Assembly: GCA_951813565.1 (NCBI GenBank)
Contig: OX638351.1
Span: 128,001-192,000, forward strand
Source of the DNA: an uncultured Poribacteria bacterium
Lineage (GTDB): Bacteria > Poribacteria > WGA-4E > WGA-3G
Length of the DNA: 64,000 bases
Reading direction: 5' to 3'
Part shown: positions 15,321 to 15,580 of the stretch, in pieces
Position numbering within the stretch: position 1 is the stretch's first letter
How the letters are laid out: each line of letters starts with the position of its first letter
The notes under the pieces: model-generated
Databases searched by the model: none
What the model was told of the DNA's origin: nothing
The model's input: the letters and a program-made list of their open reading frames with translations, nothing else
Made by a program: the position numbers and the translations under genes

Positions 15321-15580
15321 GAGGGGTGTGCATAAATATTTGGCGCATCAACACAGACAGGGACAGACGCCAAGTGCCGCTTGATTTATAGAAATGCGTT
15401 TGTAGTCGCGCAATTCATTGCCAAATCAACGCAGCATGCGCCAAATCAACGGTCCGAATGCCTTATGGCATTCCCCGTGTGGCATGCTGCGCCTCTTTGA
15501 ACTTGTGGACGGAAACCCACGGCGTGTGCGGACTACCTTTAAGCGCATATTTAACATCGGAATTATTTATGCACACCCTC
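15321..15580. mobile_element. MITE with TIR GAGGG(G)TGTGCATAAATA and 8-bp TSD
   Basis: ATTTAAGT duplicated at 15313-15320 and 15581-15588. Confidence 0.8.

Follow-up and report, generated by a model that had tools for sequence, protein, structure and literature searches.

A tagged hairpin repeat of 33-36 nt that appears at new sites without target duplication in sponge-symbiont Poribacteria

Copies of the unit in the window

The window, by which we mean the whole stretch of 64,000 nucleotides that was analysed, is part of a single-contig genome of 5.43 Mb from Candidatus Poribacteria (G000), and it carries copies of a short repeat that consists of NN-AATCAACG followed by a hairpin of 9-10 bp ending in CG, the whole being 33-36 nt long. 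The window has 17 occurrences of the string AAATCAAC, where 5.0 +/- 2.5 would be expected, and a total of 17 was reached in none of 100 shuffles. An Rfam scan of the window at the gathering score gave only two tRNA genes, at 13367-13440 and 39916-39988 (-), and the unit matches no family. An earlier note on this DNA had listed a series of loci with a conserved end and a hairpin, and tag plus hairpin is indeed found at every one of them, the copy at 59896 having the truncated tag ATCAACG. The end given there as conserved, CCAAATCAAC, has to be amended: the invariant part of the unit is AATCAACG, an unpaired tag of 8 nt, and the two bases 5' of it vary, being CA in 332 of the 544 simple units that we could parse in G000, TG in 104, CG in 39, GA in 27 and TA in 25. 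CpG deamination was considered as the origin of the CA, TG and TA starts and rejected, as the CA-type sites have three bases (CCA) and not a decayed CG duplication.

At 15402..15493 (+) a GTAG-footed REP-like host hairpin, GTAGTCGCGCAATTCATTGC|GCC, is split by a composite of two units; this host is found 158 times in its empty form and 80 times filled. The outer unit (15422..15490, +) is CA-AATCAACG with a GCAGCATGC hairpin and has the second unit in its loop, giving 69 nt in total. The inner unit is 35 nt long and lies at C|G in that loop (15442..15476, +; 15441-15475 fits equally, a one-base ambiguity). That one copy sits in the loop of another had been proposed before and is confirmed, as removal of the inner unit gives a joined 22-mer present 13 times in the genome and removal of the whole composite gives joined flanks present three times. 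The fold of the inner unit has a z of -3.6, and that of the nested composite is -17.7 kcal/mol with a z of -4.0.

A further composite at 15627..15721 (-) has a duplicated tag, CAAATCAAG-AAATCAACG, then a hairpin enclosing another hairpin and then a tag-less hairpin, and occupies the loop of a GGCGAGG/CCTCGCC repeat. Within it, and genome-wide, there is a related hairpin inside units, AATCATG with GCGAATGC or GTAGAATGC arms, the loop of which is reversed relative to the tag; it may be a sister element that has another tag. A 35-nt CA-type unit at 16017..16051 (-), with joined flanks found 12 times, is at the 3' foot of a neighbouring unit and in tandem with it, and a REP-like hairpin has a 34-nt CG-type unit at its GTGGGAG|GGG foot (16052..16085, -). 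These two units are contained in a 450-bp composite repeat (15860-16310) that has three further full-length copies elsewhere, with 98-99% identity, and about ten partial copies.

The other copies are more scattered. There is a duplicated-tag unit followed by a tag-less second hairpin at 6073..6144 (+), a two-tag palindromic form (tag, hairpin, reverse tag) at 6291..6351 (+), which is one of 27 such matches in the genome, and at 8051..8133 (-) a composite in which a unit is joined to the 3' arm of another and to a tandem 35-nt unit (8051-8085). The 33-nt unit at 22194..22226 (-), AATCAACG...CG, is at CCCATA|GGTGT and has a terminal G that is absent from the host. The 36-nt units at 47680..47715 (-) and 59752..59787 (+) are precise at the C|G of AAAACGC|GCCTAC and of GTCCCTAC|GGGAC respectively, and the empty host motifs that removal was expected to restore occur 24 and 22 times in the genome. 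The same expectation failed for the 35-nt unit at 28567..28601 (-), in the loop of a GGCGGGG/CCCCGCC repeat: exact removal gives no match with flanks of 8 or 11 nt and the usual host is GGCACAGGGAC (72 copies) as against GGCACGGGAC (5 copies), so that host bases were probably lost at this junction. The tag-truncated unit at 59897..59929 (+) lies in a repeat of the GTAGCACAAACT family and is ragged at its tag-side junction, which is shared by 7 copies.

Two other features of the window may be recorded. The repeat-rich spacer at 21664-22514 differs between strains, one contig in the conspecific-looking runs X4 and X9 having about 2.5 kb of different sequence between 21663 and 22515. At 57790-59152 (-) there is an IS200/IS605-type element with a TnpB of 370 aa (57879-58991) and a tnpA that is a mere stub; the family of this element has about 29 ORFs in the genome.

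Structure and occurrence of the unit

Among the 544 simple units 483 are of 34 or 35 nt, and there are 186 distinct hairpins; the hairpin filter passed 46 of 4463 random G positions as background. The hairpins fall into two main families, one having a 9-bp stem with a bulge near the apex and the other a 2-nt bulge near the foot. In 161 distinct hairpins of family 1 the covariation counts, which are inflated by relatedness of the sequences, lie above all 1000 column shuffles for stem pairs 3, 4, 5, 6 and 8 (133 for pair 3 against a shuffle maximum of 96), only narrowly above for pair 2, and not above for pairs 7 and 9. The tag is whole in 554 of 690 typical hairpins and reduced to 1-6 bases in 20, and 116 are tag-less, most of these lying directly after the 3' end of another unit. 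The base 3' of the unit is G in nearly all non-tandem copies, with GGG in 278 of 445, the background for CGGG being 22,339 of 521,026 CG sites.

A unit may lie in the loop of another, in either orientation, or be stacked head to tail with it, and insertion into the tag of another unit gives the CAAATCAAG-AAATCAACG form. Tag-to-reverse-tag structures number 27 in the genome, and chimeric flanks and two-tag fusions are present among the copies. At three loci (L172, L180 and L199) a unit is preceded by fragments of the tag, AATCAG or AAATCAAG, in short tandem arrays, as if there had been repeated insertion into the tag. The unit is mainly intergenic, with 3 of 910 typical copies within ORFs of at least 200 aa. 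GC skew gave no usable origin or terminus in G000 for a replichore strand-bias comparison.

With regard to distribution, CCAAATCAACG has 519 copies in G000, against 4 for the reversed control, and is enriched in all 24 genomes of the same genus, with 13-297 copies each. There is no enrichment in 16 genomes of other families, which have 4-11 copies each. A stricter unit pattern run over GTDB genomes gave at least 117 stretches, and all 80 titles listed are Candidatus Poribacteria. At the stringency searched, the unit appears from these counts to be confined to one Poribacteria genus. In metagenomes 88 of 130 loci passed the stem filter; 63 of these match G000, and the other 25 are typical units in Poribacteria-like repeats or apparent chance matches. 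Viral contigs were considered as carriers and rejected, as the 24 pattern matches are single and mostly unpaired and we read them as chance.

Filled and empty sites and the junctions between them

The unit is real and structured, and it appears at new sites without duplication in these sponge-symbiont Poribacteria. For 524 of 1270 tag matches the exact joined empty allele is present as a 22-mer elsewhere in G000, as against 22 of 1270 random positions, and we regard mobility of the unit as very nearly certain. The earlier note had described a mobile, non-autonomous, single-hairpin unit that enters other repeats and itself without target duplication, and the empty alleles bear this out. Such alleles, the absence of which it would have taken as decisive, exist within the genome and at orthologous sites elsewhere, and copies of the unit are present outside larger repeats and not only as parts of a larger MITE.

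All three of the typical copies within ORFs of at least 200 aa have orthologous empty alleles in other species. In a gene of the lipoate-ligase family a 36-nt unit is present in frame in G000 and G006, and the site is empty in 4 of 6 genomes. In a DDE-transposase gene a 36-nt unit is present in three G000 copies and the site is empty in five loci of three genomes, and G048 has a different hairpin variant, of 35 nt, at the site filled in G000. In an OGG-type glycosylase gene a 33-nt unit is present in G000 and ten relatives, with none in nine, and three relatives have a decayed insert of equal length. The three in-gene insertions are in frame with no host base duplicated or lost, a sample biased towards clean events by in-frame survival. 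The join is C|G in two of them; in the other it falls at a third codon position and is C|A or C|G. The different hairpin variants at the C|G site of the DDE-transposase gene in the two species (L136 in G048, contig C5; 3913194 in G000, contig C1) may be independent insertions or the result of later conversion.

Among the rows listed for four runs compared with two window stretches there is no skip of 33-36 nt, and no circle and no conspecific polymorphism was seen in these comparisons, in which contigs break at units. In a 400-kb comparison with G006 the intergenic DNA was too diverged for clean indels.

Intergenic sites are much more numerous. Distinct sites without residual tag number 216, of which 203 are intergenic, and the join is CG in 115. 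The restored targets fold to a median of -5.1 kcal/mol, against -3.4 kcal/mol for 600 control intergenic CG sites (p 3e-10). The hosts are mostly GTAG- or GTGG-footed REP-like repeats, many of them from families that flank the RAYT genes of the genus. Many copies are in composites that were amplified afterwards inside larger repeats, 462 outer sites reducing to 263 distinct 24-nt contexts.

For study of the junctions we pooled G000 with the fetched loci. An empty host was identified for 360 of 591 units, which fall into 129 junction types, and we kept the 96 types represented by two or more empty copies. Of these, 39 are precise with regard to the commonest host allele, and for 36 the pool contains no precise allele; the other 21 could be precise for a rarer allele, and these are weak cases, as single-base variant alleles of any letter are about as frequent (60 of 149 controls). 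The claim that the unit inserts cleanly 5' of a CG is borne out only in part, CG being the join at 115 of 216 sites and 36 of the types being without a precise allele.

If the unit is taken as ending in CG, the host has lost 0-5 bases, with loss of 1 base in 56 types, and on the tag side there is a gain of 0-4 bases across the junction types. The terminal G of the filled site is without a counterpart in the commonest host allele in 47 of the 96 types, with the proviso that empty alleles in repeats are taken from sister copies and not from true ancestors, and later mutation may mimic overwriting. In the GT-AG-GAGGGAACTC family the empty alleles are 42 AG and no GG, and nine filled copies read G...CGG; in CCGT-AG-GGACGATATG the empty alleles are 18 AG and no GG; and in GGCAC-AG-AGACCC the count is 106 to 4 when empty, and 16 filled copies read CGG. 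The gained CA has a host C before it in all 37 types concerned, and a donor-like string, AAGA, recurs at junctions in unrelated hosts. By their sequence the gained bases look like donor flanks. On these allele counts and gained bases the hairpin end is constant, with its own G, and the tag end is loosely joined.

Possible mechanisms and related elements

We put at roughly 0.4 the probability that this repeat, which is non-autonomous and non-coding, spreads by single-strand copy-in at hairpin-rich sites, with matches of 1-4 bases at both ends and a nick made in trans by a RAYT-type HUH enzyme. The nick would come from a hairpin-binding single-strand nuclease, a RAYT-type HUH enzyme being the most likely, and the free 3' end would pair with two to four bases (mostly GG) just past the foot of the donor's hairpin. 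A DNA polymerase would then copy hairpin and tag, and the strand would go back to the target through a short match lying one to three bases beyond the tag. A C-G-G target would give an apparently perfect insertion, and at other targets a few host bases would be overwritten; the filled repeats would then be multiplied within larger repeats. The available text of PMC8266576 has the HUH nick of TnpA-REP leaving a 3'-OH able to prime synthesis. We infer the single-strand intermediate from the size of the unit, the stem covariation and the preference for structured DNA, and we favour copy-in over cut-and-paste because one rule covers both precise and ragged sites. We count in favour of copy-in the orthologous filled and empty genes, the stem covariation, the intact hairpin end, the extra G, the excess of GGG after the unit, the donor-like gains, the structured targets and the presence of RAYTs in all five genomes of highest copy number. 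Against it are the lack of a candidate enzyme gene bounded by the unit and the patchiness of RAYT across the genus, and also that the three ortholog-verified insertions are lossless and that the 39 precise types fit cut-and-paste equally well.

It is possible, though we hold it tentatively, that the unit is a complete mobile element of one hairpin, in which its own AACG foot directs a borrowed RAYT-type nick at C|G and the tag serves as copy stop, so that it overwrites target bases and parasitises the REP/RAYT system. If this is true the unit comes close to the minimum size of mobile DNA, and it has an overwriting insertion chemistry that is without description in the literature examined and that may also explain the cyanobacterial SDRs.

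The earlier note had suggested looking for a Y1 or RAYT gene bounded by the motif. The Y1 genes of G000 comprise five IS200/605 TnpA, three RAYT and two other loci, with RAYTs at 242059-242472 and 5070821-5071234 and a gene of the other Y1 class at 3098010-3098354; one RAYT gene (contig C1, 3549566-3549979, locus L009) has an internal TAG, and another Y1 gene, at 1368721, is likewise interrupted. With 40 loci added from relatives, 46 of 50 could be parsed by a readable HUH motif, and none of the 46 has the unit on both sides (upstream only in 5, downstream only in 3), so the suggestion fails for this set. The ends of the five TnpA loci carry no unit, and the RAYTs of the genus are flanked by their own GTAG repeats.

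Among the 24 genomes of the genus RAYT was found in 17, reverse transcriptase (PF00078) in 10 and Cas1 in 16, and RAYT is also in 11 of 16 genomes of families without the unit. The five genomes with the highest copy number all have RAYT, two have reverse transcriptase and three have Cas1. Correlation with copy number gave a rho of 0.35 for RAYT (p 0.09), -0.27 for reverse transcriptase and -0.09 for Cas1, none being significant and kin not being independent. There is no PF01797 match in G001 and G023, which are near-complete with about 100 tag copies each, and Cas1 was not found in G006 or G017; absence in incomplete genomes is not conclusive, and a mover may be lost after amplification.

Other enzymes fared no better. 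In G000, which is 95% complete, there is no match to PF02371 (IS110), and none in that genome to the archaeo-eukaryotic primase, Prim-Pol or DUF559; a Y2_Tnp search gave no match and neither did its control. For the small GIY-YIG genes of the genus 18 loci were fetched and none of the 14 parsed is flanked by the unit, and the three PF01541 matches in G000 are in frames of 265-627 aa. A conserved stand-alone GIY-YIG protein of 121-126 aa is encoded, mostly at a shared locus, in 12 fetched loci of the genus (within L330-L342), without flanking unit. We rejected an autonomous partner in G000, as none of the multi-copy IS families has a link with the unit. Units lie to either side of 18 ORFs, all of which are ordinary genes or spurious frames, and beyond common large proteins no ORF family is recurrent beside units in the genome and metagenome loci. 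A multi-copy protein with an HWH motif resembles an IS630-type transposase, judged by eye. Off-target integration by Cas1 was also rejected, given three CRISPR arrays with unrelated repeats and Cas1 in 16 of the 24 genomes. In G000 (contig C1, 3989138-3992477) cas1 and a 54-repeat CRISPR array have a reverse-transcriptase gene between them.

An HUH enzyme, the kind of transposase named in the earlier note, is still the leading candidate for the mover, but clean excision and insertion in the IS200/605 style does not explain the overwritten bases. That scheme in its full form, which we think doubtful, has a RAYT-like enzyme bind the hairpin, cut at C|G with the AACG at its 5' foot as guide and release a single-strand circle of 33-36 nt, a dumbbell with the tag as second loop, that inserts at C|G or T|G, the ragged sites being due to later erosion or rare alleles. 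The available text of PMC8266576 gives a guide rule for TnpA-Mb, in which GTAG cuts C|T and GTGG cuts C|C, and extrapolation to AACG would predict C|G, the join at 115 of 216 sites; the guide is of course itself that extrapolation. The same source, as far as available, has strand transfer by TnpA-Ec needing a 3' C, and one may take the unit to end in C. G-type units show C|G at both ends in some hosts, the modelled circle folds as a dumbbell, and no host base is lost in any of the three in-gene events. However precise rejoining predicts no host loss and no extra G, and G is present where hosts are without one; for 36 of 96 junction types the pooled sequence contains no precise allele, the commonest type begins C|CA and not C|G (332 of 544), and the cognate gene was not found among the 46 Y1 loci.

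It could also be that there is no dedicated enzyme, and that the unit is copied from one hairpin-rich site to another in the course of host replication and repair, through template switching and gene conversion among repeats, with tag and stem persisting by favouring polymerase stalling or restart. Enrichment of the tag in 24 of 24 genomes of the genus, while every candidate enzyme is patchy, would fit this, as would the microhomology at junctions, the chimeric flanks and the two-tag fusions. We nevertheless consider it unlikely, as the near-invariant 8-nt unpaired tag and the compensatory stem changes point to recognition by a protein, and the unit is restricted to one genus at the stringency searched.

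Improbable in our view is an RNA-mediated route, in which a short transcript of the unit would be reverse-transcribed at a target nick to give a tight 3' (hairpin) and ragged 5' (tag) junction, as in non-LTR retroelements. Such a route has reportedly been suggested for the SDRs of Nostocaceae. In its favour one may cite that the junctions are asymmetric, that one tag-truncated family has a host hexamer duplicated at 59896, and that G000 has two reverse-transcriptase genes. However PF00078 is in only 10 of 24 genomes of the genus and was not found in the high-copy G006, G012, G014 and G017, the rho with copy number being -0.27; truncated tags are rare (1-6 tag bases in 20 of 690); and the mismatches on the tag strand of the inner stem, G.T 27 and A.C 53 in sequences that are not independent, are biased in the opposite direction to that expected if this strand were the RNA.

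That the unit is not self-mobile but a fixed module of larger MITE-like repeats, for which one could cite the many copies in amplified composites (462 outer sites in 263 contexts) and the 16017-16085 pair inside its 450-bp repeat, is hardly credible, being contradicted by the orthologous filled and empty genes, the 96 junction types in unrelated hosts and the self-insertion in both orientations.

With copy-in at a nick as our preferred reading, we can compare the unit with known systems. The closest would seem to be the small dispersed repeats SDR1-8 of Nostocaceae, reportedly described by Elhai et al. in 2008 and compared here by description only. They are said to have a hairpin with compensatory changes and to nest in themselves, the mover being unknown. 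The Poribacteria unit resembles them in being very short, dispersed, non-coding and nested, with precise insertions and with compensatory changes in its hairpin. SDR5 is of 21 nt and inserts precisely inside HIP1 (PMC4390886 and PMC13756078, available parts); in contrast our unit is longer (33-36 nt), has an 8-nt unpaired tag, often overwrites host bases, and has REP-like hairpins and not HIP1 as target.

The unit is also like the tagged REPs and REPINs in having an unpaired tag at the 5' foot of a high-copy intergenic imperfect palindrome, of 20-40 nt, without target duplication, as these are described in the accessible parts of four papers (PMC3733652, PMC3116915, PMC8266576, 10.1101/279083). 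However the REP/RAYT foot is a GT[AG]G or CGTC tag, for which the unit has AATCAACG, and the tnpA-REP gene is flanked by its repeat, whereas no parsed Y1 locus has the unit on both sides. The Poribacteria unit moves as a single hairpin, whereas in P. fluorescens, according to the same parts of those papers, REP doublets were seen to excise and singlets were not; the unit also inserts into REPs and not beside them. With IS200/IS605 it shares the hairpin ends, the single-strand logic and the absence of duplication, and it differs from derivatives of these in having one hairpin and not two ends, no fixed target tetramer, and TnpA loci without the unit. The Ssn (SsnA) system of GIY-YIG single-strand nucleases has in NTS/SRM a hairpin repeat that is likewise abundant in symbiont genomes and that is recognised as single-stranded DNA (PMC11893778, in the part available), but there the single-domain GIY-YIG gene is flanked by the repeat, which was the case for none of our 14 parsed loci. 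Unlike DDE MITEs the unit is an asymmetric tag and hairpin without terminal inverted repeats, and there is no duplication at the three orthologous sites; an IS110 or bridge-RNA MITE does not fit the lack of a PF02371 match in G000, and the CRISPR repeats of its three arrays are unrelated.

We did not find a description of the unit in the literature searched, supplements and most subscription papers aside. It is not a new class in outline, SDR-like elements being known. The available text of PMC8266576 calls the mechanism of REP dissemination unknown, and that of PMC13756078 says the same of the function of SDR5. For the question of how repeats of less than 40 nt move, the Poribacteria unit offers what is usually lacking in such cases, with hundreds of copies, about 100 junction types, and nested and in-gene insertions with known empty alleles. 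By analogy with the TnpA guide rule it also yields a biochemical prediction, that local RAYTs would show AACG-guided cutting at C|G. Lastly, the in-frame insertions add 11-12 residues to proteins, and are in this way a small source of protein novelty.
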